Assembly: GCA_020510985.1 (NCBI GenBank)
Contig: CM035843.1
Coordinates: forward strand, 157,123,922 to 157,187,921
Direction of reading: 5' to 3'
Length of the DNA: 64,000 nt
Source of the DNA: Pholidichthys leucotaenia
Lineage: Eukaryota
Shown here one piece after another: positions 1-26,219 of this stretch. Both the position numbers and the translations under genes were made by a program. Below the pieces are notes generated by a model. The model did not search any database and had not been told where the DNA came from. It saw only the letters and a list, made by a program, of their open reading frames with translations. The stretch's first letter is position 1; every line of letters starts with the position of its first letter.

Positions 1-12
1 CAATTGACTTTG

Positions 13-632
13 TGTGTACAGTAGTTATGTCAATAAACACATGCATAAAGTTTGAAATGCAACAGTCTCACCCTTTCCCCGGCGCACTTCATTCATTTAC
101 AATAGTGTGTGTGTAATCCATGTAAGCTGTATATAACTATAAAGGATGAGATTTGCATTTTGGACATAAAATATGTATTTGTCGAGTCTAATATGATCTG
201 CTTTCAACTGACAGGTGACCATGGCTACCTACTAAATAGGTTCATGTTGGCTTCTTTTTCGTGACTGTTTTCCTTTATTCAACCAGCTGATCCACCCGGC
301 TGGTCACAAATCACAGTGATCAGCTGACGCTTCTGAGGATGACTGCAGACGTCAGTGGAAACATGTCAAGGTTAAATAAACAACTCCTTCTTATCCCTGT
401 CTGAATAAAGGAAACAATAAACTAATCTTATAGGGGCTGTGACAGGCTTTTGAATTCCCTGTATCTGGCGCTAATGCTGAAGAATAAGAACCAAGCAAAA
501 TGTTTTTACGTGCCTCTACCTCATTCAGGAGCACCTCCAATTCATAGTCCATGAAATTCCATTAAATCTATTATTTTTGATCGTGGATACAGGAGAATCA
601 AATGTGCAACGCTTGTATATATCTATTTGCAT
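13..632 (+). repeat. Segmental repeat R, proximal copy. Its inverted counterpart is 38369-38880 plus 25078-25208
   Basis: 13-60 is near-identical to the reverse complement of 38821-38880. 300-420 is about 90% identical to the reverse complement of 38440-38560. 490-632 matches the reverse complement of 25078-25200. No coding signal. Confidence 0.7.
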
Positions 633-957
633 ATACAGGGTAGATGCTGCACGGTGGCGCAGTGGTTAGCACCGCAGCAGCACAGTTTACCCTCGGCCGG
701 GGGATCGCGGGGATCATGAGATCGTGGTTCGATCCCTGCCCCCGGCCAACAGTGATCTGTGTGGACTTTGCATGTTCTCCCCGTGTTTGCATGGGTTTAC
801 TCCGGGATTTCTCCGGTTTCCTCCCACATGCTAAAAACATGCAGGTTAGGGAGTTAAGGGGCGCTTGCGCACGCAGCGACCGGCAGCCGGTGGCTTGTCA
901 CCGGACTGCAGAACGAATCTACCTACGGGTACAAAATAAGTTAAAAAAAAAAAAAAA
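633..957 (+). mobile_element. tRNA-derived SINE (teleost SINE core) with poly-A tail
   Basis: tRNA-like head 'ggtggcgcagtggttagcac...ggttcgatccc'. Conserved teleost SINE core 'tttgcatgttctccccgtgtttgcatgggtttactccgg...ctcccacatgctaaaaacatgcaggttagg'. A15 tail at 943-957. Flanked by about 8-bp direct repeats 'atttgcat' (625-632 and 959-966). The paralogous R copy (reverse complement of 23400-23430) lacks the insertion, so it is the empty site. Confidence 0.8.
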
Positions 958-960
958 GAT

Positions 961-1190
961 TTGCATCTAATTGCATATTCAAAAGGAGGCGTGTCAAGGG
1001 AGGAGCCCGGTATTTCCTGCATTCAATTTCAAATAGATTGGAATGTACAAAGGAAATGTGCTTGTATTCCTGCGTACGCACGGTTTCATACATCTGGATT
1101 TTTAAAAATTTTTTCTTTTGCTTGCGACGTCATCTTTCAGTAGGAAATCCATGCAAGTCTTTGTACATGAGGCCCCTGGAGTTTCATGGT
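961..1190 (+). repeat. Repeat R, distal part. Inverted counterpart at 23200-23425; terminus motif recurs at 44897-44925
   Basis: 961-1190 aligns to the reverse complement of 23200-23425 ('gtgtcaagggaggag...ctttgtacatgaggcccctgg'). The terminal 25-mer 'ctttgtacatgaggcccctgg' occurs a third time at 44903-44925, which suggests the end of an unclassified repeat. Confidence 0.55.
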
Positions 1191-2689: not shown

Positions 2690-3705
2690 GATGCCAGTTT
2701 TTTCAAGTTGCAAATTACAATTTAATTACACAGAAGAAAGCATCCAGATGCAAATTTACAAGACAAAGTTGAACATTTACAGAAAAAAATAAACTTTTGA
2801 GAAAAAGCTGCAAATTTATAAGAGAAAAGTAGCAAATTTATGAGAAAAAAGAAAATTTACATTAAAAAAATGCCAATTTTTGACAGAAAAAGTTGCAATT
2901 TTATGGGAAAAAAAAGTCACAATTTTTTAATAAAAAAGTTGCAAATTTACCAGAAAAAAAATGACAATGTATGGGGAAAAAGCTGCAAATTTAAAAGAAC
3001 AAGATAGTGAATTTATGTAAAAAAAATGTAATTTTTTTGACAAAAAAGTCACAAATTTATGAGGGAAAAAGGTAGCAAATTGTTGAGGAAAACGTCACAA
3101 AATTACAAGAAAAATAGCAAATTTATGTGAAAAAGTTGCAATATTTTGCGAATAAAGTCACAAATTTATGAGGGAAAAGGTTGTAAATTCTTGAGGAAAA
3201 CGTCGCAAAATTAGAACAAAAAATTGCAAAATTATGTGAAAAAAGTTGACAATTTTTGACAAAAAGTCACAGATTAATGAGAAAAAAGTTACAAGTTTAT
3301 GAGAAAAAATGAAACTTTACAGGAAAAAAACTGCAAATTTACAAAAAAATTGAAAATTTATGAAAAAAGTCAAATTTTTTAGCAAAAAAATTGCAGATTT
3401 ATGAGAATATAAGTCACAAATTTATGAGGAAAAAAGTTGCAAGTTGTTGAGGAAAAAGTCACTTTTTTTTTGCAAATTTATGTGAAAAAGTTGAAAATTT
3501 CTGAGAAAAAAGCCACAAATTTAAGAGAAAAAAATGAAACTTTACAAGAAAAAAATGCAAATTTATGAGAAAAAGGTCAATTTTCAAGAAAAAAAACAGC
3601 AAAGTTATGAAATGTCACACATTTTTTTAGGAAAAAATTGCAGATCTATGAGGGGAAAGTAGTCACATTTTGTTAAAAAAAACAGCGTTGCAGAGCTACA
3701 AGTTT
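2690..3705 (+). repeat. Minisatellite array, A-rich orientation. About 20-bp unit 'gttgcaaatttatgagaaaaa' with an about 120-bp higher-order repeat
   Basis: More than 40 tandem units. Blocks 3050-3167 and 3168-3285 repeat as a unit of about 118 bp ('gtcacaaatttatgagggaaaa.g.t.g.aaatt.ttgaggaaaacgtc.caaaatta...'). Confidence 0.85.
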
Positions 3706-4744: not shown

Positions 4745-5830
4745 TTTTTTCTGAAATTTTTCCTCATAAAATTGCAGTTTTTCTTGTAAATCTGCAACAT
4801 TTTTCCTGTAAATTTTTCGTTTTTTTTAAAACAAATTTGCAACTTTTTTCACATAAATTTGGGATTTTTTTTCTCAAAAATTAGCAACGTTTTTCATAAA
4901 TTAAAAAAAAACAACTATTTTTTAAAGTGGCATCTTTTATCTTAGCATCTTTATTCTTGCAAATTTCTAGATTTGCATTTCTTTCCTAAAAAAATCTTAG
5001 CTTTTTTCCCCTCATAGATTTACAACTTTATTCTCAAAATTTGCAGCTTTTAGTTTGCAGCTTTTTCCTGTAAATTTTCAACTTTTTTCTCATAAATTTG
5101 CCAAGTTTTTCAAAGATGTGCTTTTTTCTCAAAAATGTGCATTTTTTTTCATAAATTTGCAAAAAGAATTAAGTTTAATTTTCAGTTTTCTCCTGAAAAA
5201 TTTTCTCATAGATTTGCAGGTTTTTTTCCTCAAAAATGTGCGTGTTTTTCACATAAATCTGTGATTTTTTTTCTCAAAACTTTTCATCTTTTTTCCCCAC
5301 ATAAATTTAAAACAATTTTCCTGTAACTGTTCAACTTTTTTTCAAAAATTTGCAACTTTTTTCATAAACTGGAAAAACAAAAACCTTTTTTCTTGGAAAT
5401 TTTCTACCGTAAATTTTCAGCTTGTTTTTTTCTTACAGATTTGCATTTCTTTCCTAAAAAAATCAGCTTTTTTCTCTCATAGATTTGCATATTTTTTTCT
5501 CATAAGTTTGCAACATTTTCCTGTAAATTTTCATTTTTGTCATGAATTTGCAACTTTTTTCTTATTAATTTTCAATTTTTTTTCTCAGTGTACTTTTTTT
5601 CATAAATTTTCACAAAAAGGCTTAATAATTTTCAAATTTCTCTTGAAAAATTTTTCCTCATAGTTTTGCATTTTTTCTCCAAATTTCATTTTTTTCCTCA
5701 AAAAATTTCCATCCTTTTTATGTAAATTTGCAACTTTGTTTCATAGATTTGTGATTTTTTCTCATAAATTTGTAAAGTTTTTTCTCATATTTGTTTCTTT
5801 TTTCCTGTAAATTTTAGTGTTATCATATTT
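4745..5830 (-). repeat. Minisatellite array, same family as 2690-3705 in inverted (T-rich) orientation
   Basis: Units 'ttttctcataaatttgcaac' are the reverse complement of the 2690-3705 unit. ORFs 5055-5326 in the track are low-complexity artefacts. Confidence 0.85.
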
Positions 5831-6039
5831 TCACTTTTAGCCCATAAGAACCTAGACTCTCCAAGGAAAATTATGGGGGACTGGGTTCTTAAGAGTTAAT
5901 GTGACATGTATCATACACAGCTGAATAACAAAAAAAAAACAAGTGGTTGCATAAGTTTGCACACCCATAAACTAATTGTCCATTGCAGAGCCTCTTGATT
6001 TAATCACAGCTTTCAGTCTTTTTGGGTCAGAGTCTGTTA

Positions 6040-6388: not shown

Positions 6389-6509
6389 GTCAGAGGCTGG
6401 GACTGGGGAGAAAAAAAACCAAACAAACAACAAAACACATATTTGACCAAAAATATCTGCAGGCAGCCTTAAAAAATAAAGACGAGACACACAATGAACA
6501 AAAGTTTTA

Positions 6510-8123
<1,614 letters not shown>

Positions 8124-8444
8124 TATATGTGTGACTTTTCATAAATTAGTGATATTTTTTTTTTTTTAACTTTTTTTCTCAAAAAATTGTAAGAAAAAAG
8201 TCACAAATGTATGAGAAAAGTTGATGGTAATTTTAAGTTTCTCCCTGCAAAAAATGTTGAGGGTGACCTTGTATCTTGGAGGCCTCCTAGCATTTGCGTA
8301 TTTTGCTGTATAGACAGAAACGTCTTTGAGCTGGACTTGTTGTAGCTACTCTGATAGAACGCCTCCTGATCCAAGTCGTATAAAATCAAACTGACACAGA
8401 CAGAAATAAGCAGGCGTCACTCTTGCTTCTTCCTCGTCCCACAG

Positions 8445-8699: not shown

Positions 8700-9170
8700 G
8701 GGGATTAAATTTGCACTTTTTTCTTAATTTATGACTTTTTCCTTATAGATGTGCAACAGTTTCTTATAAATTTGCAGCTTTTTTCTTTAAAAAATTGTCA
8801 CTTTCTTCTCGCATAAATTTGCAATTTTTTTCTTAAAAATGTGTGACTTTTTTCTTCATAAATCTGCAGCTTTTTCTCATAGATTTGCAACATTTTCTCA
8901 TTTGCAAATATTAAAAATTTGTGCTTTTTTCCTCATAAATTTGCAAGTTTCTCTCAAAAATTTTACTGTTTTTCTCAGAAATCTGCAACATTTTCTTGTA
9001 TATTTGTAACTTTTTTTCTTATAAATTTATTTTTTTTTTGTAGATTTGCAGTTTTTTCCCCATTAATTTGCAACTTTTTCCTCTAACTTTTTTCATGTAC
9101 ATTTTCAACTTTTTTCATACATTTGCACTTTTTTCTCATAGATTTGCAACTTTTTTCTGTAAATTTTCAT
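8700..9170 (-). repeat. Minisatellite array, same family as 4745-5830
   Basis: Tandem 'ttgcaacttttttctcataaatttgca' units. Confidence 0.8.
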
Positions 9171-9235
9171 CTTTCAAGGAAAATATGCAGTTGGTATATT
9201 TATAGATTTTAGAAAAGCATTTGATACAATAAATC

Positions 9236-9428
9236 AGAGGTGTCCAGTCATGTGCCATGGAGGGCCAAGACCCTGCAGGCTTTACCTCCAGCCAGTGTCT
9301 TCAGCAGCAGATTCCACTGAATTTCTTCCCACTGATTGCTGATAAGTGAAAACACCTGCTGAAGAGGCTGGGTAGAAGAGAAAACCTGCAGGGTCTTGGC
9401 CCTCCTTGGCACATGATTGGACACCCCT
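9236..9428. mobile_element. MITE of about 190 bp with about 45-bp terminal inverted repeats, inserted in the CR1-like RT
   Basis: Repeats 'ggtgtccagtcatgtgccatggagggccaagaccctgcagg' (9239-) and reverse complement 'cctgcagggtcttggccctccttggcacatgattggacacc' (-9425). Flanked by a direct repeat 'aataaatca' (9227-9235 and 9429-9437) that interrupts the codons 'AFDTINHSIL'. Confidence 0.75.
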
Positions 9429-11237
9429 GCAATAAATCATTCAATACTTTCTGATAAACTGCAATTGTATGGTATTGGGGGAGTGGCACTGAATTGGGTT
9501 ACAAGTTATTTATCTGAGAGAACAGTTTCTGAAGATGGGAGAATATCTGTCTGGATGTATGGGAATTGCCTGTGGGGTCCCCCAGGGGTCAGTATTGGGC
9601 CCCAAATTATTTAACGTATATATAAATGATATATTCCAAGTTTCTAAATTATTAAAAATTATATTATTTGCTGGTGATACTAATATATTTTATTAATATA
9701 TTTTATTATGGAAATAATTATAAGGAGCTAATCCATACATTAAATAATGAATTAAATAAGCTAAAAAATGGATGATAGTAATAAATTATCACTAAATATA
9801 GATAAAACTAATGTAATGATATTTGGTAATTGGAAAAATAAAGAAGATATGCATATTCATATAGATAATGTAATTACTGAAAATGTTACAGATCAAATTT
9901 TGGAGTGTAATACTAGATGATAAAATTAGTTGGAAACCACACATCAGATACATACAAAACAAAGTGGCAAAAAATACCACAATTATAAATAAAATTAAGC
10001 AAGTCCTAGATTACAAATCACTTCATATCTTGTATTGCTCATTAGTACTTCCATACTTGACCTATTGTATAGAGGTCTTGGGTAACAATTATAAAAGTAT
10101 ACTTAATTCATTGCTAATATTACAAAAAAAGGCAGTCCATGTTATACGCAAAGTCGGGTATCTTGAACATACTAATTTATTGTTTTTACATTCAAAGTTA
10201 TTGAAATTACAGGATCTAGTTGATTATTATGCAGCACAGTCAATGTTTAAAGTCAGTAACACTTTTTGCCACACAATATACAAAATCTTTTTAGTCTAGA
10301 GAGAAGGGATATACCATTCACGGGGAATACAAAATTTAAAATGCACCTAGTAAGATCTACTTGGAAAAGTTTTTGTATGTCTGTGTATGGGGTAAAATTG
10401 TGCAATGGGTTGGGGGAGAAACACAAATGTCCAAACATCCATATATTTAAATCAACATATAAATAAATGATTTTTGAACAATATAAAGATAAAGGACAGT
10501 AATATTACAATGTGTCTTTAATGAAGAAAGGTTGTTATTGTTGAATATATATGCGGAGTACTATTGTTATTATTGATATTATCATTATTATTACTAGAAT
10601 TTTACAACTCTATTTTAGTATTGTGATTGTTGTTTAGGATGGAATTATTAAAAGTAATATATATGCTGAGTGGTATTATTAATTTTATTATTATTATTGT
10701 TGTTGTTATTGTAACTACTGTGTGGCTGTTATTATGGTTATTACTACAGTATATGGTTACTTATTGTACCTACATAGGTATTGTAAGCCATGTGGGGGTA
10801 TATGGTGGTATTTATGGTGATTATGATGATGATAATATTGTCTATAATTATATTAAATGTACCAGAAGTATTTATTTATTATTATTACAATTGTTATTGG
10901 ATGTTGGTATTGTCGTCATTATAAATTATCATTGTATTATTTCTACTCCATAATTTAATTATAAGATGCATTATATATTATGGTATTGTATAATGAATGT
11001 AATCATGGAATGGATAGTGACTTTGGTGATAATATTATAATTTATTGAGTATGGAGAAGGGGTGGGGCTATATAAGCGTTGGCTTCTTCCCACTCCTTTT
11101 GAACAAGGACATTTTTGTTATGTTATTTTTTGGGTTGATTCCTTGTTTTTAATTTTTTTTTTTTGTCTTGATGATCAAATCAGTCAAATCTTTTTTCTAA
11201 AAAAAAAAAAAATCAATTTCTTACCTTTAAATTTTCA

Positions 11238-11262: not shown

Positions 11263-12132
11263 ATTTGCACTGCTCATCTGGTTGCTGGTGGTTTTATTCA
11301 CTGTGTCATCATCATCATCATCATCATCATCATCTATGAGGAAATGAGATGCTGATGAACAGGCCGGTTCTCCCACACACTGACTCATAATTAATCTGTT
11401 GCTGCCTTCCCACTAACTCTCAGTGGATATAACTGTACACTCTCATGTTTAACAACAGGGTTTTATGATTTTAAAAAGTGAGACCATGACAGATGACAGA
11501 TTGTTTCCAGACTTTTGCCACCTTCAGTGTGACCTCAAACCTGTACAGTTCAAGTGGAGAAAAACACAAAGAATACAAACAATGCAATGTATAGTTTAGG
11601 CCTTTATTCTAAGGTCACCAGACCCAGAAGAATTACATCTCATTGTGCTACACTTATTGATAGCATATTTTCAAATAATATGGATAATAACACAAAGTGG
11701 ATTAATCATCGATACTGGTGACCATCTGCTAATATTAAGTTTTTGACAATGATTACAGGAAAGAACTAGAAAAGCACTCGGACAGCGCAGGACCTCCGCC
11801 AAGTACCTCAGTTCCCCATAATATTGGGATTTTCCCCAAATATAATAGTCCTACATTTATTTTATCTATATTTTCAGATTCCTTGACCATCAAAACATAC
11901 CTTTAGCAACTGGATTCACATTGATATCTTTATTAGTTCAGTAGTTATTGACAAAAATCACTTTTTCGGTAATGGCAGTTTTCCTCTGGATATAGCTTCA
12001 TAGCTTTTGAAGATACAACAAATCCATTGACACGTCACTGATTCCTCAGTGTCTTGGCTATATTTTGGTGTTTGTTGTATGTTTATATCTTAATTTGTTA
12101 CCTTACAGTGATGAAAATTCCAAAGATCCCCT

Positions 12133-12546
12133 TGTGGGACACATATGTTGGTTTCATATGCTCCACAAATAGAATACTGTATGTATATTGTGTGCTGCAC
12201 GTCTCAGGGGAACAAAGGGACTGAGCCTCCTAGAGGTAATGGGAGGGTGTGAGATTTGGCCTTTTGTTTCAAGGAGATGGCCTTGAGAGATTTCCTGACC
12301 ACCGGAGACTAGGGGGTGGATGGTGTTAAGATCGGAGGAAGTTATATTGTGACTGGGATTAAGTACCATGTGACTGTATGTTTGATTAAACACCATGTGA
12401 CTGTAGTTTGATGTCCTAGGTATAAAAGGACAGATGTGAGAAGATTCATCCTCTTTTCCTGCTTTGAAATTGTTGGAGTATGTGATTGTGAATAAAGCTG
12501 AATCTGAGGAATAAACTCAGTCTCATCCTTCAACACATTCTCCACA
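12133..12546 (+). repeat. 5' LTR of copy 1
   Basis: Identical apart from a few SNPs to 16606-17019. Contains 'tataaaagg' at about 12420 and 'aataaagctg' at about 12485. Confidence 0.85.
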
Positions 12547-12549
12547 CTG

Positions 12550-13992
12550 GTGACCTTACGACGAAGCATGAGCAGAGATAATTCTCCTGAGCGGGGCTCG
12601 TCAGAAGCCAGCCTGACGAATGCCGCCACGTTCCAGCTGCCGGACTTCTGGCAGAATAGTCCGCGCTCCTGGTTTAGCGCGGTCGAGGCGCAGTTCAACC
12701 TCCGGAGAATCTCGAGAGACGACACAAAATTCTACCATGTGGTGGCGAAGCTGGACAACCACACAGTCCAGAGGGTGGAGAACCTGGTCAAACACCCGCC
12801 GGACAGCGACAAGTACAGCGCATTGAAGACTGCGCTTATCAGCCACTTCACCCCCTCGGTGCAACAGCGAGCAGAGGGGCTTCTAGCGTTGACGGAGTTT
12901 GAGAACGACAGACCCGCGGACCTGATGGGGAAAATGCTGAGGTTGAGAGACTCCGAAGATGACAGCTTTATCTTCGCCCACCTTTTCCTCAGGACCCTGC
13001 CGCCAGCGGTGAGAGTGACCCTGGCAGGTTCACCTCTGTTGGCCCGGCGAGACTACCACGAGCTGAGCCAGGAGGCACAACGACTCGTCGATGCCCACAA
13101 ACGGAACGCAGCTTCGGCCGCGGCAGCAGAGCTAGGCGCAACGTCCGGAGACGGCATGGGGCCAGAGGCTGCAGCACCAGACTCACCGACGACGGCAGCA
13201 GCAAGGGCCAGGCGACACAGAGTGGACGACCACCTTTGCTTCTACCATCGCCGCTTTGCAGAGAGGGCGCTCAAGTGCATTCCACCGTGCCATTTCAAGC
13301 GCTCGGCCCTCGTGGAGGAGAACAAGCTGCTCTACCTGACTGATGCACGTTCGGGGAGGCATTTCCTCATGGACACAGGCTCCCAGCTGAGCTTCATCAC
13401 GCCTTCCTACGCGGACCGGCTTGCGCCTTCCAGGGGTCCCCGGGTGTCAGCAGCGAACGGCTCAGCGATTAAGACCTTCGGGGAGAGGACTCTGCTTCTG
13501 TCTTTGCAGGGCCGTGCATTTGAGTGGACTTTTGTTGTAGCGGCAGTCAATTTCAACATGTTAGGGGCTGATTTTTTGTGCTCACATGGTTTATTGGTTG
13601 ATCTTGCTAACAGACGTCTGGTTAATGCACTCTCCTTTCACTCTATTCCCTGCACAGCTCGAGTGGCCCCGCCAACTGCACAAGCCAACGTCACAGCTGC
13701 AGGTGGTAAGTTCCACGCACTCCTCACTCAGTTCCCAGCACTCACGGTCCCAACGTTTTCGGCGACAGTGGCTAAACATGGGGTGGAACATTTTCTTACT
13801 ACCACCGGCCCGCCCGTTTTTGCAAAAGCTCGGCACTTGGACTCAGCTAAACTGACCATAGCGCGCAAGGAGTTTGCCAACCTGGAAAAACTGGGCATCA
13901 TCAGGCGTTCGAAGAGCCCCTGGGCTTCACCACTGCACATGGTCCCAAAGGCTGATGGCTCGTGGCGACCTGCGGTGATTTCCGCAGGTTGA
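12550..13992 (+). CDS. gag-protease ORF of copy 1 (480 aa, uninterrupted)
   Basis: DUF1759-like gag N-terminus. Cysteine/histidine cluster 'CFYHRRFAERALKCIPPCH'. Aspartic protease 'FLMDTGSQLSFI'. Confidence 0.75.
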   Translation: MTLRRSMSRDNSPERGSSEASLTNAATFQLPDFWQNSPRSWFSAVEAQFNLRRISRDDTKFYHVVAKLDNHTVQRVENLVKHPPDSDKYSALKTALISHFTPSVQQRAEGLLALTEFENDRPADLMGKMLRLRDSEDDSFIFAHLFLRTLPPAVRVTLAGSPLLARRDYHELSQEAQRLVDAHKRNAASAAAAELGATSGDGMGPEAAAPDSPTTAAARARRHRVDDHLCFYHRRFAERALKCIPPCHFKRSALVEENKLLYLTDARSGRHFLMDTGSQLSFITPSYADRLAPSRGPRVSAANGSAIKTFGERTLLLSLQGRAFEWTFVVAAVNFNMLGADFLCSHGLLVDLANRRLVNALSFHSIPCTARVAPPTAQANVTAAGGKFHALLTQFPALTVPTFSATVAKHGVEHFLTTTGPPVFAKARHLDSAKLTIARKEFANLEKLGIIRRSKSPWASPLHMVPKADGSWRPAVISAG

Positions 13993-15992
13993 ATAACGCC
14001 ACAGCGCACGACCGCTACCCGATTCCGCATATCCAAGATTTTCGGTTCATTTGGCAGGGGGGCGCATTTTTTCTAAAATGACTTACTATGCGGTTACCAC
14101 CAGTTCCAGTGCGCGCTGAGGACATACCCAAAACAGCGGTAATAAACTCCTTTCGGGCTTTTTGAGTTTTTGCGCATGCTGTTTGGGCTCAAGGGAGTGG
14201 TGCCAGACGTTCCAAACGCATGATGGATGCGGTCCTAAGCGATCTCCCTTTCGTGTTCGTCTTCTTGGATGACATTTTGGTAGCCAGCGCGTCCGAAGAC
14301 GAACACGAAAGCCACCTCACAGCAGTTTTCCGGAGGTTGGCAGAGCACGGGTTAATAATTAACCCAGCGAAGTGTCAGTTCAAGGTGGCGCAGATTGATT
14401 TTTTGGGGCATCGCGTTTCGCCAGAAGGAGCGGTCCCTCTGCCCGATAAGGTGCGCGCAATAACAAATTTTCCCCAACCACAAACGGTCAAAGCGTTACA
14501 AGAGTTTTTTGGGAATGGTTAATTTTTATAACAGTTTCCTCCCCCGTGCAGCGCAGCTCATGCAACCATTGTACGCTGCACTAAAAAAACAAAAAACCGA
14601 CGAATAAAATCGAATGGTCTCCTGAGCGGGAGCGCGCATTCTCTCAAGTCAAATCAGCCCTGGCAAACGCTGCGTTGTTGGCACACCCAGTCCCAATGGC
14701 CCGCATGGCGCTCACTATTGACGCGTCAGATGTTGCCATAGGGGCGGTCGTTGAACAGTACGTGGCTGGGGCTGGCAACCGCTCCGTGGTTTTTCAGCAA
14801 AACCTGCGCGATAGTGAGCGAAAATACAGCGCCGTTCGACAGGGATTGTTAGCTCTACACTTGGCCATCCGCCACTTCCAGTTCTGGCTGGAAGGACGCC
14901 GTTTTATACCGCATTCGTGGTCCCACAAACCGCTGACTTTCGCGATGGCCAAGATTTCGGAAACCTTGGTCGGGCCGGCAGCAGAGACAGCTGGCCGCGA
15001 TATCGGAGTTTACCCACCGATATCCAGCATGTGGCAGGTAATATAATGTAGTGGCAGACTGCCTCTCACGTGCTGTGGCGGCTTCCAGGCCCGTGGGGGC
15101 AGACTCTGCAGCCATGGCCGCAGACCAGGGTAGCGACGCGGAAGCGCGCGCCGCCCCCGGTCCGCGTGAGGGATAGATTTATGCCTCCATGGCCGCGAGC
15201 AGGTTAGCGACGCGGACGTGCGCGTGCTCCAGTCTGGACCAACAGGGTTTAAGGCTGGAGAGCAGGGTGCTGCAAGATGGTATGCCCCCCCTAATCTGCG
15301 ATGTCTCCACTGGACGACAGCGTCCGGTCGTACCAGCCGCGTGGCACCGCTGCGTTTTTGACTCGATGCATTCTCTGGTGCACCCGGGGGTGGCGCAGGT
15401 CGTCAGTCAAAATGGTAGGAGAGAAATTTGTAAGGCCGTGCTGAGCAAGCAGGTCAAGGAGTGGGCAACAGCCTGCGTGGCTTGTCAGGAGCCAAAATGC
15501 ACAAACACACTAGAGCTCCCTTGGAGCCTTTTCACATCCCGGCTAAGCGGTTCGATCATGTGCATGGTCGACCTCGTAGGCCCCCTTCCGGTCCGTCACA
15601 GGGGTGCACACACCTTTTTGACAATGGTGGACCGCACCACGCGTTGGGCCGGAATGGTCCCACTGGCATCAACCACAGCCGAGGAGGTGGCGCGCGCATT
15701 TTTAACAGCATGGGTAGCACGTTTTGGAGTTCCGTCAGACATTACGTCCGACAGAGGTCCTCAATTTGTGTCCGAGCTCTGGTCAGCGATTGCCCGCAGC
15801 CTGGGAGTAACGATCGACCGCACTACCGCGTACAACCCGCAGGCTAATGGTTTATGCGAACGTTTCCATAGGTCATTGAAAGCAGCCCTCAGAGCGTCAC
15901 TTACGGATACAAATTGGGTAGACAGGCTACCATGGGTTTTATTGGGGTTGCGTTCTGCACCTAAAGAGGATTTAAAAAGCCTCCCCAGCTGA
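13980..15992 (+). pseudogene. pol of copy 1 (RT, RNase H, integrase), broken into at least 4 frames
   Basis: ORF fragments carry RT 'FVFVFLDDILVAS' (14220-14522), RNase H 'TIDASDVAIGAVVEQ' (14675-15046) and integrase 'HRCVFDSMHSLVHPG...CVACQ...DLVGPLP...DRGPQFVSELW...AYNPQANGLCERFH' (15189-15992), with frameshifts and stops between them. Confidence 0.8.
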
Positions 15993-16605
15993 GTTAGTTT
16001 TTGCGCAGCCACTCGGCTGCCCGGGGAGTTTCTTCCCGGATAATCCTGCGCCAGAGTGCTCCCCTGCTCAGCGGTTGCAGAGCGACACGGGATCGAGCAC
16101 GCTTCCGGGCCCAGTTCATCACAGCTTCCCGCGCGTTTTTGTGCCTAAAAGCTTTTAAAAAAATGCGGAGTTTGTTTTTGTCAGGCATGATGCCCACCGC
16201 CCAAACTTGCAACCGCCTTATGATGGACCATTTAGAGTGCTGGAAACAGGAGAGAAGCATTTTGTGCTAGATTTGGGAGGCAGAAAGGAAGTAATTGGCA
16301 TAAACAGACTCAAACCCGCTTTTGTGATGGCTGATGAAGCTGTGCATTTGGCGAGGGCTCCCTGACGCGGCAGACCCCCTAGAGGGCATCCTCCGGAACA
16401 CCCACAGAGATTGACTAACAGTTCTAATCCACAGGCAGCGGCCCCACAGCAGGAGGACTCTGCGGAGGCAGGAAAACCGGCTTACAGCAAATACGGCAGA
16501 AGACTAAGGCCTAAGCGGCATGTGGATTGATATGTAGTGATTTTATTATGACATGCATCTTTAGTTATGATTGTTCCATCTTAGACGTTTGGGGGGGGGG
16601 GGTCA

Positions 16606-17019
16606 TGTGGGACACATATGTTGGTTTCATATGCTCCACAAATAGAATACTGTATGTTTATTGTGTGCTGCACGTCTCAGGGGAACAAAGGGACTGAGCC
16701 TCCTAGAGGTAACGGGAGGGTGTGAGATTTGGCCTTTTGTTTCAAGGAGATGGCCTTGAGAGATTTCCTGACCACCGGAGACTAGGGGGTGGATGGTGTT
16801 AAGATCGGAGGAAGTTATATTGTGACTGGGATTAAGTACCATGTGACTGTATGTTTGATTAAACACCATGTGACTGTAGTTTGATGTCCTAGGTATAAAA
16901 GGACAGATGTGAGAAGATTCATCCTCTTTTCCTGCTTTGAAATTGTTGGAGTATGTGATTGTGAATAAAGCTGAATCTGAGGAATAAACTCAGTCTCATC
17001 CTTCAACACATTCTCCACA
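16606..17019 (+). repeat. 3' LTR of copy 1
   Basis: See the 5' LTR entry. Preceded by G13 polypurine tract. Confidence 0.85.
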
Positions 17020-17399
17020 CCCTATTATTTCCTGTTCTGGATCACAGTATCCGGATTTTTTGCAGGATCGGGATCAGTCTTTGATATTTCGTAGAACCTA
17101 TTGGGATCTTATCCTGTATTTTTTTGGCAAGCGTCCTGACCATTTATTGTGGAGTTATATACACATATGCTAAAAATGGGCCTATCTCGCAATGATAAAG
17201 AATCCTTTAAAAAATTCCTGGATCCAGACGGTGATCCGTATCACTCCCAAAATCTAATCATTTCTTCATTGTCCCATTTTGGACTTGTCCTGAAAATTTC
17301 GTCAAAATCCATTGATAACTTTTTGAGTTATGTTGGTAACAGACAGACAGACAAACAAACCCCGGTAAAAACATAACCTCCTTGGCGGAGGTAAAAACA

Positions 17400-17665
17400 A
17401 AAAAACAGCACTTATGTACAGATGAGTGAGGACTGAAGAATCAATGAATGCTTTAAAAAAAATGATCTAGCAAAACAGAATTGGGAAGAACTATATAATG
17501 AAGAAGACACAGACAAAGCATATGAAATATTTTTAAGAATATTTAAATTATTATATGATAAAAATTGTCCACTTATTAAAAAAATCAATAAGAAGCAAAA
17601 ATATTCAGACAATCCATGGGTAACCAAGGGATTGAAAAATGCCCGCGAAAAGAAAAATATGTTAT
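17400..17665 (+). mobile_element. CR1/Rex-like LINE fragment (segment upstream of RT)
   Basis: Nucleotide homology to 44940-45160. Protein 'EELYNEEDTDKAYEIFLRIFKLLYDKNCPLIKKINKKQKYSDNPWVTKGLKNARKKKN'. Confidence 0.6.
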
Positions 17666-19289
17666 CACCATAATAGGACTAGTTGTTATAATCTGGATAA
17701 CCATGAAAACCGGTACTACCTGTCTTATGGGTTGGGCCGCCGGCGACTCAACCAGCAACCCTGTCCTTCTGAGGGCGTGGAGGATGAAACTGGGCATCCT
17801 GGCAGAACTAAAAACAATATCTGTCACAGGTCTGTGGTGGACCACTCCCAGTTACACCGGGTGAGACTGGACATCCTGGCAGATAAACACGTCTGTCGCA
17901 AGGTCTGTGGTGGACTTTTGCCAGTCGGTGCATCGTGACATGCAAGACACAAAGAGCAGAGATAAACAAACCTATCATCTGGTCAGTCACTGCAACAGAT
18001 ACTGGAGTCAGTTTGTCTTGGCCTGTCCTTGCCACCGATAATACCTCTATCTGCCAAGAATGTGCCGCTAGTCCAGCAAAAGCTAGCAGTACTCAAATAC
18101 TTTGCAAGCAGTTTCATGAAAGTCAGTCAGAAAGCAACTCATACTGGCTCGGACGTCGCCTGGGTAAACAAGGTCAGGAGTTCCTGGCAGCGGAAGGCGA
18201 AGGACAGAGCTGCGTGGAGGAATCTGATCAGACCTAAATGAAACAGTCATTGTCGCCCCCGACAGACTGCGATGATGATGATGATGTTATAATCCCTAAA
18301 ATCAGCACCTTAGTTGACTGGTTTCAACCAACTCGGCCCCCAACCACTATGTCTTCCTGGGTGGAGTTGATGACCTCATGGCGCCGCCAATGCAACACAT
18401 CATCAGTTGTGCACCCCAAGGCTCACTGGGTGTTTCGGCCTTTTATCACAAGACACCCTCACCCAAGGCTGGACCACCACAGGCTGATCAGGCCTGGCCG
18501 TATGTTGTTTGGGGGCTCCATGTAGTCATTTGACAGCTCATACTGTGTCCTTCCTTTTCAGCCATAGCCAGTGACTGCTTCTCTTAGTGACACTGGCAAG
18601 CTCTTTGATAGTTCTCTGTTGGACCTGCCCCCTATCTCCCACCTCCTTCAGTAGTCTTGTGGTGGAACTGGCTACAAAACTCCTGCAGCCCACCTTCACA
18701 GGGCGCACCTTTACATTCCAGCCCGGCTCCTCTGCTTCATCTGCAAGGTTTGCATATCGCAGCCTTTTCCTTTCGAAAGCCTCATTGATGGATTCCTCCC
18801 AAGGGATTGTCAGCTCAACGATTCAATTCAATTCAATTCAACTTTATTTATATAGCGCCATTTCACAACAACAGTCATCTCATAGCACTATCAACTATAG
18901 GGAGGACCCCCACAGTTGCAGAAAGACCCCAGCAATCAGGCGATCCCCTGTGAGCAAGCACTTGGCGACGGTGGAGAGGAAAAACTCCCTTTTAACAGGA
19001 AGAAACCTCCAGCAGAACCAGGCTCAGGGAGGGGCAGTCATCTGCTGCGACTGGCTGGGGGGTGAGGGGATAGAGAAGAAGAAAAGAACAGACATGTAGA
19101 GAGCAAACAGCACGATGGGGACTCAATCTATGGGAGAGAACAAACAAATGTTAATGACCAGCAAAAAAAAAATATTTCATAGAGAGTGAGGAAAGGAGTG
19201 AGGCCCAGTGCATTACTGGAGGTCCCCCGGCTGACTAAACCTATTAGCAGCATAACTAAGGGAGGGTTCAGAAAACACATGATCCCTCC

Positions 19290-22200
19290 CTAATTGTAGG
19301 CTATATCAAAAAGGTAGGTTTTAGCCCTATTCTTAAAAACAGAGATCGAGTCTGACTCCCGAATCCAGATTGGCAGCTGATTCCACAGGAGAGGAGCTTG
19401 ATAACTGAAGGCTCTGCCTCCCATTGTACTTTTGGAGATTCTAGGTATTACAAGTAAACCTGCATTTTGGGAGCGTAGTGCTCTGTTAGGATGATACGGT
19501 AGTATCAGATCTTTTAAATAAAAAGGAGCCTGATTGTTTAGAGCTTTGTAAGTAAGAAGAAGGATTTTAAACTTAATTCTAAACTCTATGGGAAGCCAAT
19601 GAAGGGAGGCCAGAACCGGAGAGATATGATCTCTCTTTCTAGTACCTGTTAAAACTCTTGCTGCAGCATTTTGGATCAGCTGAAGACTTTTTAAAGATGT
19701 TTTAGGACAACCTGATAATAAAGAATTACAATAATCTAATCTCGAGCTAACAAAAGCGTGGATCAGCTTCTCAGCATCACTCTGAGACAAGATGCTCCTA
19801 ATCTTGGCAATATTACGCAAATGATAGAAGGCAGTCTTAGAAACAAATTTAATATGTGAATTGAAGGACAAATCCTGATCAAAAATAACTCCAAGGTTCC
19901 TCACAGAGCTATTAAGAGAAAGAGTAACTGCATCCAAACTGAAAGTTTGATTTGGAAAGGAATTTCTAAGGTTTTTTGGACCAACAAGAATGACTTCAGT
20001 CTTATCTGAATTTAATAGCAGGAAATTACAAGTCATCCAAACTTTGATTTCCTTAAGACAGGCTTCTAACTTGGCTAATTGATTAGTATCATCTGGCTTC
20101 ATTGACAGGTATAATTGTGTGTCATCTGCATAACAGTGAAAATGTATACAGTGCTTTCTAATAATGTTGCCTAACGGAAGCATATATAAACTAAAAAGAG
20201 TAGGGCCAAGCACAGATCCCTGTGGAACTCCTTGACTAAGCTTTGAGCTGAGAGAAAACTCATCATTTACATGAACAAACTGGAACCTATCAGATAAATA
20301 AGATCTAAACCACTGCAACGAAGTTCCATTAAGTCCAACATAGTGTTCTAATCTATCAAGTAGAATATTATGATCAATAGTATCAAAAGCTGCACTAAGA
20401 TCTAAAAGGACAAGTACAGAAACTAGTCCATTATCAGATGCAATGAGGAGGTCGTTAGTGACCTTCGCTAAGGCTGTTTCAGTGCTATGATGGATTCTAA
20501 ACCCAGATTGAAACTCCTCAAATAAACCATTTCCCTGCAGGTGGTCAAATAATTGCATAGCAACAACTCTTTCTAAGATTTTTGAAATGAAAGGGAGATT
20601 AGAGATTGGTCTATAGTTAGCTAAAGCTCCTGGATCTAGCGTTGGCTTTTTGAGTAAGGGTTTAATTACAGCCGTTTTAAAAGCCTGCGGTACATGGCCT
20701 AAAGTTAATGAAGAATTGATTATATGAAGAATAAAGCTACCAATAAGTGGGAAGACTTCTTTAAATAACCTGGTAGGAATAGGGTCTAAAAGACAAGTTG
20801 AAGGTTTGGATGAGGAAACTATTTTGTCTAACTCACAAAGGTCGATTGGAGTAAACTCATCAAGACAGACATCAATAGAAGGAGTTGTAGTAGTTACAGT
20901 ATTTAAGTTAACTGTGGGAAGAATCTGATTGATTTTATCTCTGATGGATGAAATTTTATTATTGAAAAAGTTCATAAAGTCCTGACTAGTAAGCTCTAAG
21001 GGAATCCAAGGATTGACAGAGTCCTGGCTCTTTGTCAACCTGGCTACAGTACTGAAAAGAAACCTGGGATTATTCTTGTTCTCTTCTATTAATGCAGAGT
21101 AATAACTCGTTCTAGCTTTTCTAAGAGATTTTTTATAAATTAAAAGATGATTTCTCCAAGTTAAATAGATTTCATCTAAATTAGTAGAGCGCCATTTTCT
21201 TTCTAATTGACGAGTCTTCTGTTTTAAGCTACGAGTTTCTGTGTTGAACCAAGGAGTTAAAAATCTCTGATTAGACTTTTTCTTTTTTAAGGGGGCCACC
21301 AAGTCTAGAGCCTGATGTAGAGAAGCTGAAACACTATCCACCATGTTATCAATTACAGAAGGAGCAAGCTGTCTATAGCTTATTTCCGTTGTGTTGACAC
21401 ATGGCATAGAGGAAACAATCTGCATAAATTTGGAAACAGCATCATCTGAGAGGCATCTACTGTGATAATATTTTTCTTTAGGAGCCAAATAGTCAGAAAT
21501 AGTAAAATCAAAGGTTAACAGACAATGGTCTGACAGTACAGGGTTATGAGGAGACACTACCAGATTTTCTATTTCTATGCCATATGTCAGAACAAGGTCC
21601 AATGTATGGTGGAGGTAATGAGTAGAATTTCCTACTTTCTGAGAAAACCCAATCGAGTCTAATATTGAATTAAAAGCCACATTAAGGCAATCACTATCTA
21701 CATCCACATGTATATTAAAGTCCCCTACTATAATTATTCTATCAGATTTCAGCACTAAATCAGCTAAGAAATCAGGAAATTCGGATAAAAATTCTGAATA
21801 GGTTGATGGGGGACGATAAACTATGGCAAATAAAATTGGGTTTAACCTGGAATTGCTAAAGTGCCCAATACTGAGGACCAGGCCCTCAAAGGAATTATAA
21901 CATGTTTTTTGCTTTACATTAACTAGTAATTTGGAATGGTAAATTGTTGCTACTCCTCCTCCACGACCAGAACTTCTGGGATTTTGACAGTTTAAATAAC
22001 CAGAGGGAGTTGATTCATTTAAACCAACATAATCCTCTTGCCCTAACCAAGTCTCTGTAAGGGATATTAAATCAATCTGATGATCAATTAACAGATCATG
22101 GACTAACAGAGACTTGGGAGTTAGAGACCTAATATTTAATAAACCACATTTAATTTTTAAATTATGAGGAGGAACAGAGGCCAAATCATTCAATTTAGAG

Positions 22201-22469
22201 GCTTTATGTTTAATTTGAGTTTTACCAATATTTTGCTTTATCACTTTGGGATGCTTATACATTATATTTTTATTTACTTTGGAGGGAGCAGACAACGATT
22301 CTCTGATGGGGAAGACAGGGGCTAAGTTGAGGGGGTGGCGGATGAAGAGGAGCTGCAGAGAGGCGTGTAAGACTGCGACTCTGCTTCCTGGTCCCAACTC
22401 TGAGTAGTCACGGTTTTGGAAATTTGGATAAAAAAGATGCCAGATTGTTAGATAAATGAGAAGCACCAT
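19290..22469 (-). CDS. L2 ORF2: APE endonuclease plus reverse transcriptase, 1059 aa, uninterrupted
   Basis: Endonuclease '[33 protein letters not shown]'. RT '[17 protein letters not shown]', '[19 protein letters not shown]', 'CYADDTQLY'. C-terminal '[11 protein letters not shown]...[12 protein letters not shown]' block. Confidence 0.85.
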
Positions 22470-23163
22470 CCAAAGTGGGATGAATGCTGTCTCGTCTCAT
22501 AAGACCAGGTTTTCCCCAAAAAGAGCTCCAATTGTCAATGTAGCCCACGTCATTTTTAGGACACCACACAGACAGCCAGCGGTTCAAGGATGACGAGCGA
22601 CTAAACATGTCATCACTGGTCAGATTGGGGAGGGGCCCAGAGAATACTACAGTGGCAGACATCGTTTTTGCAAAGTCACACACCGATTCTACATTAAGTT
22701 TCGTGACTTCCGACTGCCGGAGACGGATGTCATTAATGCCGGCGTGAATAACAATTGTGGAATATTTACAGTTACTTTTAGCCAGCATTTTCAAATTTGA
22801 CTCGATGTCGCCTGCTCTGGCCCCAGGAATGCATGTGACTATGGCCGATGGAGTCTCTAGGTTCACGTTTCTGACTACAGAGTCGCCAATGATCAGAGTT
22901 TTTTCCTCAGCGGGTGTGTCGCTGAGCGGGGAAAAACGATTAGAAACGTGAACAGGTTGGTGGTGAACCGGGGCTTTGCGACTAGGCTTCCTTCTCACCG
23001 TCACCCACCCAGTCTCCTCGCTGCAGAGGAGAGCCGGGGAACCGGTGACAGGGGGACCTAAACTAGCTAGCTCCGCTGCAGCTAAGGGGCGTCCGTCGAG
23101 ATTAACTGGCGCAGACGGTGTTTCAATGCAGCGGAGCCGGGATTCCAAACGATGAAAACACAT
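22408..23163 (-). CDS. L2 ORF1 with SGNH/GDSL-type esterase domain, 251 aa
   Basis: '[11 protein letters not shown]' (GDS motif) and 'IHAGINDI' blocks, typical of CR1/L2-clade ORF1 esterases. May lack a few N-terminal residues. Confidence 0.65.
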
Positions 23164-23858
23164 CGGCAGAATTTGGACCAGAGGACCAGGGGCCTCATGT
23201 ACAAAGACTTGTGTGGATTTCCTACTGAAAGATGACGTACCTTTAAATCAAGAAAACACCATAAGCAAAAAAAAAAAAAATCTAGATGTATGAAACAGTG
23301 TGTACGCAGGAATCCAAGCACATTTCCTTTGTACATCCCAGTCTACTTGAAATTGAACGGCACGTGAGGAAATACCAGACTCCTCCCTTGACACGTCTCC
23401 ATTTAGATATGCAATTGGATGCAAATAGATACAGTTTCTCACAAAAGTGAGTACACTCCTCACATTTTTGTAAATATTTAATTATATCTTTTCATGGGAC
23501 AACACTGAAGATATGACACTTTGATACAATGTAGTCAGTGTACAGCTTGTATAACAGTGTAAATTTGCTGTCCCCTCAAATTAACTCACCACACAGCCAT
23601 TAATGTCTAAACCGCTGGCAACAAAAGTGAGTACACCCCTAAGTGAAAATGTCCAAATTGTGTCCAAAATGTCAATGTTTTGTGTGGTCAACATTATTTT
23701 CCAGCACTGCCTTAACTCCCTTGGGCATGGAGTTCACTAGAGCTTCACAGGTTGCCACTGGAATCCTCTTTCACTCCTCCATGATGACATCACGGAGCTG
23801 GTGGATGTTAGAGATCTTGCGCTCCCCCACCTTCCGTTTGAGGATGCCCAACAGATGC

Positions 23859-24479
23859 TCAATAGGGTTTAGGTCTTGAGACATGCTTGGCCAGTCCATC
23901 ACCTTTACCCTGTTTCTTTAGCAAGGCAGTGGTCGTTTTGGTGGTGTGTTTGGGTTCGTTATTGTGTTGGAATACTGCCCTGCGGCCCAGTGTCCAAAGG
24001 GAGGGGATCATGCTCTGCTTCAGTATGTCAGCGTACATGTTGACATTCATGGTTCCCTCAATGAACTGTAGCTCCCCAGTGCGGGCAGCACTCATGCAGC
24101 CCCAAACCATGACACTCCCACCACCATGCTTGACTGTAGGCAAGACACACTTGTCTTTGTACTCCTCACCTGGTTGCCGCAACACATGCTTGACACAATC
24201 TGAACCAAATAAGCTTATTTTGGTGTCATCAGACCACAGGACATGGTTCCAGTAATCCATGTCCTTAGTCTGCTCGTCTTCAGCAAACTGTTTGCAGTCT
24301 TTCTTGTGCATCATCTTTAAAAGGTGCTTCCTTCTGGGATGACAGCTATGCAGACCAATTTGATGCAGTGTGCTTCGTATGGTCTGAGCACTGACAGGCT
24401 GACCCCCCCCCCCCCCCCACACCCTTTCAACCTCTGCAGCAATGCTGGCAGCACTTATACATCTATTTTCAAAATACAA
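23859..24479 (-). pseudogene. Tc1 transposase, C-terminal 206 aa in frame; N-terminus frameshifted
   Basis: 'HVLWSDDTKISLFG', '[18 protein letters not shown]', 'FQHNNEPKHT'. Upstream helix-turn-helix part is in another frame (around 24500-24660). Confidence 0.75.
24400..24419. repeat. Poly-C homopolymer
   Basis: About 19 C in a row. Confidence 0.9.
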
Positions 24480-25077
24480 CCTCTGGATATGACGCTGAAC
24501 ACATGCACTCTACTTCTTTGGTCGACCATGGCGAGGCCTGTTCTGAGTGGAACCTGTCCTGTTAAACTGCTGTATGGTCTTGGCCACCGTGCTGTGGCTC
24601 AGTTTCAGGGTGCTGGCAATCTTCTTATAGCCTAGGCCATCTTTATGTAGAGCAACAATTCTTTTTTTTTTAGATCCTCAGAGAGTTATTTGCCATGAGG
24701 TGCCATATTGAACTTGACCAGCATTGGAGAGTGTGAGAGTGATAACACCAAATTTAACACACTTGCTCCCCATTCACACCTGAGACCTTGTAACACTGAC
24801 AAGTTACGTGATCCTGGGGAAGGTAAATGGCTAATTGGACAGAATTTGGACATTTTCACTTAGGGGTGTGCTCACTTTTGTTGCCAGCGGTTTAGTCATT
24901 AGTGACTGTGTGTTGAGTTATTTTGGGGGGACAGCAAATTTACACTGTAATACAAGCTGTACACTGACTACTTTACATTGTATCAAAGTGTCATATCTTC
25001 AGTGTTGTCCCATGAAAAGATATAACAAAATATATACAAAAATGTGAAGGGTGTACTCACTTTTGTGAGATACTGTA

Positions 25078-25208
25078 TATACAAGTGCTACACATTTGAT
25101 TCTCCTGTATCCACGATCAAAAATAATGGATTTAATGGAATTTCATGGACTTTGAGTTGGAGGTGCTCCTGAAGGAGGTAGAGGTGCTTAAAAACATCTT
25201 ATTTGAGG
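25078..25208 (-). repeat. Repeat R, distal copy, segment between the Tc1 and the L1 copy A insertion
   Basis: Reverse complement matches 490-620. Confidence 0.7.
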
Positions 25209-25361
25209 ACTTCTGGTTATGGCGGCCACGTAGGAAGACGTGTTTTGCCCTGCTCTGCTCCTAAAGATAAAAAGTCGGCAAATAACTCTCTCATTTGGAA
25301 CAAAGCCTATCCCAGCGTTTGGGCGAGGATATGCCGGTAAAGCCTAAGTCTGGGAAATCAG

Positions 25362-26219
25362 GTGGAGGGAAAAACTGAACCGCCGAAACAGTCCAAGTTA
25401 ACGGACTTTCACGTTCGTGATGGAGCAGAAAAATCTTCAGATATGGCGGAGCAAGCTAGTGGCGGAGCGGTGACTGCTGGCGACGGCACAGGTGCGGTGC
25501 TCGCTGCCATTAGCTCAATGAGAGCAGACTTTTCCGCTAAATTTGATGGGATTATAGCAGCGATAGAAGGAAAGAGAAAGGAAATAAGTGACTGTATGGA
25601 ACGAGTAACGCAGGTGGAGCTCCGAATTTCCAGCGTTGAGGATGACGTCACCAGCCTACAATTAAAGGTGCGCACATTGGAATTAAAAAATAAACGTCTG
25701 GAAGATAATGTCCTGGACTTAGAATCCCGGTCGAGATGGAACAACCTGAGGCTGGTGGGTCTCCCGGAGGGAACCGAGGGTCGGGACCCATGTTCCTTTT
25801 TGGAAAAGTGGATTCCAGAAGCGCTGAACAACGCGGAGCTGCAGTCATCAGTCGTTTTAGAGAGCGCCCATCGAATTGGCCCACCGAGAGATAATAAGGC
25901 ACCACCAAGGACGCTGATTATGAAGTTCCTCAGCTACAGAGACAAGATGACGATCTCCAACGCGGCGCGAGCCAAAGGAGAAATTAAATACCAGGATCAA
26001 CAGGTGCGGTTCTACCCAGATTTGGCCACAGGAATCCAACATTTAAGGAAACAGTTTGACCCCGCCCGTAAAGTGCTGCACAGCCTCGGGACTCCTCATG
26101 GAGTGATTCATCCTGCAAGATTGCTGGTCACATATAAGGGCAGAACTCACACCTTCAAGACCCCTGAGGAGGCGCAGGAGCTCATCAAGCAGATCCAAGA
26201 GGAGACTGGTGGGAGCTAA
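25362..26219 (+). CDS. L1 ORF1p, copy A (coiled coil, RRM, C-terminal domain), 285 aa, uninterrupted
   Basis: 'NNLRLVGLPEGTEGRDPCSFLEKWIPEAL...LESAHRIGPP...PRTLIMKFLSYRDKMTISNAARAKGEIKYQDQQVRFYPDLA...HPARLLVTYKGRTHTFKTPEEAQELIK' is the Transposase_22/L1 ORF1 architecture. Confidence 0.8.
   Translation: MEGKTEPPKQSKLTDFHVRDGAEKSSDMAEQASGGAVTAGDGTGAVLAAISSMRADFSAKFDGIIAAIEGKRKEISDCMERVTQVELRISSVEDDVTSLQLKVRTLELKNKRLEDNVLDLESRSRWNNLRLVGLPEGTEGRDPCSFLEKWIPEALNNAELQSSVVLESAHRIGPPRDNKAPPRTLIMKFLSYRDKMTISNAARAKGEIKYQDQQVRFYPDLATGIQHLRKQFDPARKVLHSLGTPHGVIHPARLLVTYKGRTHTFKTPEEAQELIKQIQEETGGS

Follow-up and report, generated by a model that had tools for sequence, protein, structure and literature searches.

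Near the start of the window analysed here, a 64,000-nucleotide stretch of Pholidichthys leucotaenia DNA that is full of mobile elements, a segment is found that recurs in reverse orientation some 22 kb further along. The original prediction took this pair for the product of a local inverted duplication, older than a series of transposon insertions for which each copy now provides the other with a filled or an empty site. The locus raises the question of whether a stretch of chromosome was copied here or whether the repeated segment is itself a transposon, and in which order the later insertions arrived on it.

The two inverted copies and their ends

The predicted reverse-oriented repeat of about 850 bp is borne out by a blastn search of bases 1-1500 against the window, by self-comparison of the window, and by a gapped global alignment. 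The first two resolve three inverted blocks: 1-477 against 38891-38399 (86.3%), 497-621 against 25200-25076 (91.2%), and 959-1179 against 23426-23186 (80.5%). For the global alignment, which the original prediction had called for together with an estimate of divergence, positions 1-1179 without the SINE were aligned with 23186-38891, reverse-complemented and freed of the Tc1-like element and the 13.2-kb L1 block. With their insertions taken out in this way, the two copies are 87.5% identical over 835 aligned columns, at a Kimura distance (K2P) of 0.138.

While the inverted repeat is real, its limits had to be corrected. The proximal copy starts at base 1 rather than at base 13, and the shared sequence ends at 1179 in the proximal and at 23186 in the distal copy, where homology stops sharply at the last base of a terminal repeat. 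On the opposite side, homology between the copies begins at window base 1, i.e., it is clipped by the window edge. This left "boundary" is nothing more than the edge of the window because bases 3-136 continue the upstream element sequence in an independent copy, fish contig L009, in which they (and, weakly, bases 197-239) are colinear with the region following transposase exon 1. Nor does the distal copy end at 38880, as had been proposed; it runs on to 44924. Its own sequence amounts to ~1.87 kb, and the remainder of the 21.7 kb that it spans consists of nested insertions. The copies and their ends are as follows:

1-1179, plus strand: proximal copy, the 3' section of a Harbinger element with an internal deletion, clipped by the window start and containing the SINE
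1158-1179, plus strand: terminal inverted repeat at the 3' tip of the proximal copy, TCTTTGTACATGAGGCCCCTGG; neither the distal copy nor any foreign copy is homologous beyond this point
23186-44924, minus strand: distal copy, a complete Harbinger element with the inverted 22-mer at both tips; colinear with hake L002 and with L009, L015, and L016
23186-23207, minus strand: terminal inverted repeat at the 3' tip of the distal copy, exact 22-mer
44903-44924, shown on the plus strand: terminal inverted repeat at the 5' tip of the distal copy, exact 22-mer

The 22-mer TCTTTGTACATGAGGCCCCTGG is present exactly three times in the window (1158-1179 on the plus strand, 23186-23207 on the minus strand, and 44903-44924 on the plus strand), with no occurrence expected by chance. 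The two 22-mers at 23186 and 44903 form a perfect inverted pair, which extends to 24 bp when the next two bases are counted. A 21-mer recurring at 44903 had earlier been read as a hint that part of the segment is repeat-derived; this 21-mer corresponds to the inverted repeat at the 5' tip of the distal copy.

Identity of the element and its relatives

The repeated segment is, with high probability, the 3' part of a non-autonomous, internally deleted PIF/Harbinger transposon, of which two copies in opposite orientation later served as landing pads for other elements. The identity of the element, its ends, and its colinearity with foreign copies are shown by sequence comparison. Three insertions (the LTR retrotransposon at 39729-44590, the L1 block, and the Tc1-like element) were taken out to rebuild the distal element, which we then compared with two loci from hake (Merluccius polli). 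The resulting ~1.9-kb element is colinear with hake L002 from the 5' repeat to the 3' repeat, the corresponding sections of L002 being 9705-10077 (5' repeat, 5' untranslated region, and start codon), 10249-10465 (exon 1), 10648-10709 (exon end and splice donor), and 12096-12318 (3' subterminal region and repeat). It is likewise colinear with L001, L009, L015, and L016; in fish contig L009, colinearity with the distal element extends over 1.3 kb, and the 5' repeat is the same. The hake and L008 elements are, at their 3' ends, colinear with bases 472-1179 of the proximal copy. Bases ~240-470, in the middle of the segment, have no counterpart in any foreign copy at either the DNA or the protein level, and may represent diverged intron sequence or a deletion junction.

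The same comparison bears on a different reading of the 22-mer at 44903, in which it belongs to a separate third element or is a solo end, leaving the distal copy as a 3' fragment only. Such a reading could draw on the sequence next to this 22-mer: beyond the 22-24-bp repeat, 44593-44902 shows no similarity to the 3' end of the element, and no matching target-site duplication joins the two ends. However, it is normal for such transposons that their two ends differ in subterminal sequence, and 44593-44902 aligns colinearly with the hake and L009 elements over their 5' subterminal region and start codon. Moreover, the four sections 44593-44924, 39725-38373, 25194-25076, and 23429-23186 keep the order, orientation, and spacing of hake L002, and the L009 and L002 alignments run unbroken across the LTR excision junction. 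We regard a third element or solo end as extremely unlikely, and treat 44903-44924 as the 5' end of the distal Harbinger copy.

Remnants of two genes are recognizable in the copies:

39056-39388, minus strand: remnant of transposase exon 1, with one in-frame stop and ~170-200 bp missing after the GFPN motif
472-552, minus strand: Myb-like remnant of the proximal copy, comprising the first ~27 codons, MDYELEVLLNEVEARKNIL... (from translation and tblastn)
25145-25205, plus strand: Myb-like remnant of the distal copy, MDFELEVLLKEVEVLKNILF, split by an L1 and resuming at 38384 (GTLCSGIS...)

A protein homology search with the 39056-39388 remnant gave 19 matches, the best of them 73% identical; several bear the name "putative nuclease HARBI1 [Merluccius polli]," while PF13359 is present in several. 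In a tblastn search of the window, the hake exon-1 protein found its counterpart at 77% identity (E=2e-35). The hake relative displays a DDE_Tnp_4 domain (5.6e-17) in Pfam, together with a convergent ORF on the opposite strand that matches Myb_DNA-bind_5 (2.8e-20), and it is to this Myb-like ORF that the proximal remnant aligns in tblastn (E=3e-7 to 5e-6). This second, Myb/SANT-like ORF is present as a remnant at the same position in both copies of the window, with no functional gene; in the distal copy, the L1 was inserted within it. Because neither the window's own transposase fragment, which covers the N-terminal exon only, nor its Myb-like fragments gave a Pfam match, the identity of both remnants rests on their homologues and on colinearity.

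[quoted passage not shown] In the window copies, the same pair of proteins, the DDE transposase and the Myb-like DNA-binding protein, would have acted on the terminal inverted repeats. Both copies are devoid of the catalytic exon and of most of the Myb-like gene; with both genes non-working, they could be mobile only with proteins from another element. Since both keep the same ~27 Myb-like codons with the remainder gone, they share one deletion form, and are the same deleted derivative in two copies of opposite orientation, one clipped (1-1179) and one complete on the minus strand (23186-44924).

[quoted passage not shown] Their terminal repeat of 22-24 bp falls just below the 25-50 bp reported for Harbinger elements (PMC9179366), unless a weakly conserved AGAGACC extension is included. 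In sharing one internal deletion while keeping their ends, they resemble the non-autonomous deletion derivatives and MITEs of cut-and-paste transposons, families that originate and multiply in this manner, although at ~1.9 kb they exceed the typical MITE size.

The 3-bp (TWA) duplication was sought at 14 termini from the window, hake, and other fish-derived contigs, under several placements of the tip, and none was visible; nor did a matching direct repeat flank the termini in any of the 14. These copies are old, and the exact tip may lie up to 7 nt from the position assigned. In the elements for which both ends are available (the distal copy of the window and hake L002), the flanks do not match, one flank being the L2 insertion. 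All 14 termini finish in a palindromic CCWGG, and approximately half of them go on outward as TCT(CT). Eroded duplications or a misplaced tip would account for the missing duplication equally well, and we think it improbable that this Harbinger lineage integrates without the canonical TWA duplication. If it did, it would be a PIF/Harbinger lineage of vertebrates in which the target-site chemistry has changed, and would compare with the Spy elements. Spy elements are PIF-like transposons that generate no target-site duplication and insert between AAA and TTT. Like the elements described here, they are PIF/Harbinger relatives, and at the present termini, too, no duplication is visible, but the AAA/TTT context of Spy is not seen here. 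We also considered a Helitron, given that the end CTGG fits CTRR, and rejected it: there is no GC-rich hairpin, and the end is one arm of an inverted repeat. A Helitron is further disfavoured by the following base, which is A rather than T at one of the three window termini.

Origin of the pair

Termini of this family were found in at least 11 separate flanking contexts in hake and in fish-derived metagenome contigs. These comprise four hake loci (L001 twice, L002, and L015) and the contigs L003/L013, L005, L008, L009, L012, L016, and L017-19. The metagenome contigs had been scanned with an 18-mer of the terminal repeat, and 6 of the 12 matches were fish-derived contigs; the other 6 were bacterial chance matches and were excluded. 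The original prediction had itself named the finding that would turn the shared segment from a local duplication into a transposon, namely its being a dispersed repeat, and this is in substance what the hake and fish contigs reveal. By analogy with these relatives, the repeat is presumably dispersed in the source genome as well.

A local inverted segmental duplication, in which a chromosome stretch holding one Harbinger was copied and the two copies then received different insertions, would nevertheless explain several features of the pair. The copies are 22 kb apart and were closer before the younger insertions arrived, and they share the same internal deletion form at 87.5% identity. In addition, Harbinger-like elements make up only 0.002-0.14% of teleost genomes (PMC9179366), and this sparsity makes two independent random hits 22 kb apart, within 64 kb, look unlikely. 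However, an amplified non-autonomous derivative predicts a common deletion form too, and the proximity of the copies has a parallel in hake L001, which holds two family members 5 kb apart, so that clustering appears to be a habit of the family. The 3' side is the one junction at which the copies can be compared, the 5' flank of the proximal copy lying beyond the window edge. A duplicated chromosome segment would carry homology past the boundary of the mobile element, whereas here homology stops exactly at the terminal repeat, and the sequence beyond the proximal tip (1180-2200) has no match near the distal copy in blastn searches down to word size 7. The local inverted duplication is not upheld by these results, the segment being the 3' part of a Harbinger element, and we leave the copying of a chromosome stretch only a slim chance.

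We infer instead that the two copies came by separate transposition events, possibly involving short-range reinsertion. The closeness of the pair probably points to a high-copy derivative, to short-range reinsertion, or to some local copying. Preferential reinsertion nearby ("local hopping") is established for several cut-and-paste families, and if it, or an aberrant transposition, operated here, the copies would be parent and offspring, a special case of transposition. That the copies are near each other, inverted, and of the same deletion form would fit such an event, as would the clustering of family members in hake. Yet a cut-and-paste event empties the donor site, save where repair draws on the sister chromatid, the ~14% divergence wipes out any direct trace, and the window holds nothing that separates this scenario from the chance proximity of a high-copy derivative. 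We entertain a parent-offspring relationship as a tentative and rather unlikely option within the preferred reading of separate transpositions. For annotation, 23186-44924 represents one Harbinger with at least five nested insertions and no duplicated chromosome segment, and the case for a structural rearrangement at this locus is thereby removed.

Insertions on the two copies and their order

The nested insertions and their duplications are likewise observed directly. The elements that interrupt or adjoin the two copies are:

633-958, plus strand: SINE with a poly(A) tail, in the proximal copy only; 8-bp duplication ATTTGCAT at 625-632 and 959-966
18821-23185, minus strand: L2-type LINE, located outside the Harbinger element and adjoining the 3' terminal repeat with its 5' end
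23432-25075, minus strand: Tc1-like element of 1644 bp with a decayed ORF, in the distal copy only; TA at 23430-31 and 25076-77
25206-38372, plus strand: L1 "A" with nested inserts, 13,167 bp; 11-bp duplication CATCTTATTTG at 25195-205 and 38373-383
28368-29809, plus strand: LINE fragment, 5'-truncated and with a tail of (ATTC)n, inserted into L1 A; duplication probably ATAAAG
31686-37219, plus strand: L1 "B," inserted within L1 A, with AGTGAAAGAGC duplicated at 31675-85 and 37220-30
39380-39563, minus strand: fragment of ~184 bp with an (ATTG)n tail, inside the transposase exon; boundaries accurate to a few bases
39729-44590, plus strand: LTR retrotransposon, its LTRs 99.5% identical; duplication CTAA at 39725-28 and 44591-94

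The SINE is confined to the proximal copy, as predicted, and at its site the distal copy reads as an unbroken TCTATTTGCATCCAATTGCAT; only the span, originally given as 633-957, had to be extended to 633-958. Its tail is A16G, and its head contains an A-box-like TGGCGCAGTGG at 655 and a B-box-like GGTTCGATCCC at 726, motifs that suggest a tRNA-type head, with no matches to the SINE in Rfam or ARAGORN. The core of the SINE is found again at 1549-1687 in the self-comparison. Conversely, the Tc1-like element is present only in the distal copy, at a TA that had been described as intact in the proximal one. This description is accurate: TA lies on both sides of the element, and the rebuilt empty site CTTGTATATATCTATTTGC equals the proximal copy exactly, with a single TA there. 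The features of Tc1/mariner elements are present in 23432-25075, namely the TA duplication, terminal inverted repeats (~240 bp, 91.5% identity), and a Tc1-type transposase ORF, which retains an HTH_Tnp_Tc3_2 (Tc3-type HTH) domain.

The third insertion, previously described as a 13-kb L1 complex, is indeed an L1-bounded block within the distal copy, but it consists of one L1 holding a second L1 and a truncated LINE. The 11-mer CATCTTATTTG that flanks the block has no occurrences in the window other than these two. L1 A breaks off at 31685 and resumes at 37217 at the same point of a reference copy (56557-62078), and the LINE fragment at 28368-29809 matches 49270-50639 in reverse orientation, the latter carrying an RVT_1 ORF. 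All three L1 copies end in A-rich tails and are flanked by duplications of 11-15 bp. L1 ORF2 aligns with human LINE-1 ORF2p at E=1e-95, compared with 1e-17 for R2, and ORF1 shows a weak Transposase_22 match just under the curated cut-off. A tandem L1 array was considered and rejected, as L1 B sits inside L1 A with its own duplication; a site-specific (Tx1-like) L1 behind the apparent tandem was likewise rejected, the three L1s having three unrelated duplications.

At least two further insertions in the distal copy, the LTR element at 39729-44590 and the ~184-bp fragment, were absent from the earlier list. The fragment at 39380-39563 is probably a SINE or the 3' end of a LINE, and is missing from L009, L001, and L002, which are uninterrupted at that point. 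The pol frame of the LTR element is open over 1045 aa. Because the alignment with hake and L009 is unbroken across the excision junction, the LTR element can be placed just past the start codon of the transposase.

The distal copy also abuts an L2, as predicted, with the 5' end of the L2 adjoining the last base of the terminal repeat. ORF1 of this element is open and matches PDB 4c1b (2.3e-29), the esterase domain of ZfL2-1 ORF1, in addition to a GDSL lipase match. ORF2, also open, contains Exo_endo_phos and RVT_1 domains, i.e., an endonuclease plus a reverse transcriptase, and the tail is (TTGAA)n. Judged by these sequence features (an ORF1 esterase, an ORF2 endonuclease/reverse transcriptase, and a short tandem-repeat tail), 18821-23185 would belong to the L2 clade. 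A target-site duplication was sought for the L2, and none was found. Since the L2 lies outside the Harbinger element, its boundary has no empty-site confirmation; of the four elements for which the paralogous copy had been proposed to provide such confirmation, it does so for the SINE, the Tc1-like element, and the L1 block. For these same three, the claim that the insertions are younger than the split of the copies also holds, the copies serving as mutual filled and empty sites. The names L1, L2, and Tc1, assigned beforehand from the letters of the sequence, are supported by the ORF2 match (E=1e-95), the match of ORF1 to 4c1b (2e-29), and the Tc3-type HTH, respectively.

Ordering insertions by nesting is the principle of TinT ("transposition in transposition"), a nested-insertion chronology (PMC3014933). 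As in TinT (PMC3014933), the interrupting element is taken to be the younger one, and an uninterrupted paralogous copy represents the empty site; unlike TinT, which evaluates statistics over thousands of nests, the present case concerns a single pair of copies. The pair provides a small, clean example of relative dating and bears on no open biological question. Apart from the matter of the missing duplication, the locus is a routine case, an ordinary cluster of nested transposons on two old Harbinger copies.

Nesting and divergence together give the relative order of events. Oldest are the Harbinger copies, at ~14% divergence (K2P 0.14). After they separated, the SINE inserted into the proximal copy, and the Tc1-like element and L1 A into the distal one, with L1 B and the LINE fragment arriving later than L1 A. 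The L2 inserted beside the 3' tip of the distal copy, in which the short retroposon fragment and the LTR retrotransposon also landed. The LTR element, whose LTRs are 0.5% different and whose pol frame is open, is among the youngest insertions.

Harbinger terminal-repeat core

The terminal repeat of the Harbinger copies has a core, ATGTACAAAG, which occurs one extra time in the opposite orientation ~105-120 bp inward of each 3' end, at 1043-1052 and at 23327-23336 in the window. This inner copy is nearly conserved in the Harbinger relatives of the hake Merluccius polli, with 1-2 mismatches (near 12290 in the hake locus L001), and it may represent a subterminal site for protein binding. L001 (JAOPHQ010005424.1) contains two 3' ends of the family, at 12415-12436 and 17410-17431, separated by 5 kb, and therefore members of the Harbinger family are clustered in hake too.

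Retrotransposons of the window

Three retrotransposon copies are flanked by target-site duplications.

12133-17020: first young LTR retrotransposon; LTRs 99.5% identical; 4-bp duplication CCCT
39729-44590: second young LTR retrotransposon; LTRs 99.5% identical; 4-bp duplication CTAA
56557-62078: third L1 copy, ~5.5 kb; perfect 15-bp duplication GAAAACCCTTGTGCA on both sides

The third L1 copy served as the reference for resolving the 13-kb L1 block. The two LTR elements share just 78% identity with each other; the first carries a DUF7041 domain in its gag, and the pol of the second is open over 1045 aa, spanning RT, RNase H, and integrase. One LINE segment is present downstream of each element, at a distance of ~330-420 bp, and its two copies (17437-17663 and 44949-45174) are 86% identical, share their orientation and have a common start point. 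The second of these copies extends into a 5'-truncated LINE of 4.3 kb, whose (TGAA)n tail lies near 49290, and it starts within 2-24 nt of the 5' tip of the distal Harbinger copy.

The L2 at 18821-23185 has ORFs of 251 and 1059 aa, and because both reading frames are open, this element may have been active recently; the gap between its 5' end and the start codon of ORF1 is just 22 nt. Immediately past the L2 tail, at 18560-18820 on the reverse strand, lies an open frame containing …LRYANLADEAEEPGWNVKVRPVKVGCRSFVASS…, which, judged by eye, is similar to the C-terminal portion of DIRS-type tyrosine-recombinase retroelements and is a candidate for such an element.

Tc1-like element, satellites, and self-complementary stretches

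The remaining features are as follows.

6508-8141: second Tc1-like element; 219-bp inverted repeats, 95% identical
2746-3682, 4749-5838, 8706-9176: satellite arrays; both orientations occur
9235-9429, 62740-62922: self-reverse-complementary stretches, ~190 bp each; ~75% identity to own reverse complement

The transposase of the Tc1-like element is open (344-349 aa, with a Sleeping Beauty-type HTH and DDE_3), and a further copy of its repeat, truncated by the window end, is found at 63791-64000. The satellite unit, of ~21-22 bp, is similar to TTTTTTCTCATAAATTTGCAAC and is organized into higher-order periods of 43-119 bp. The two self-reverse-complementary stretches look like palindromes or foldbacks.
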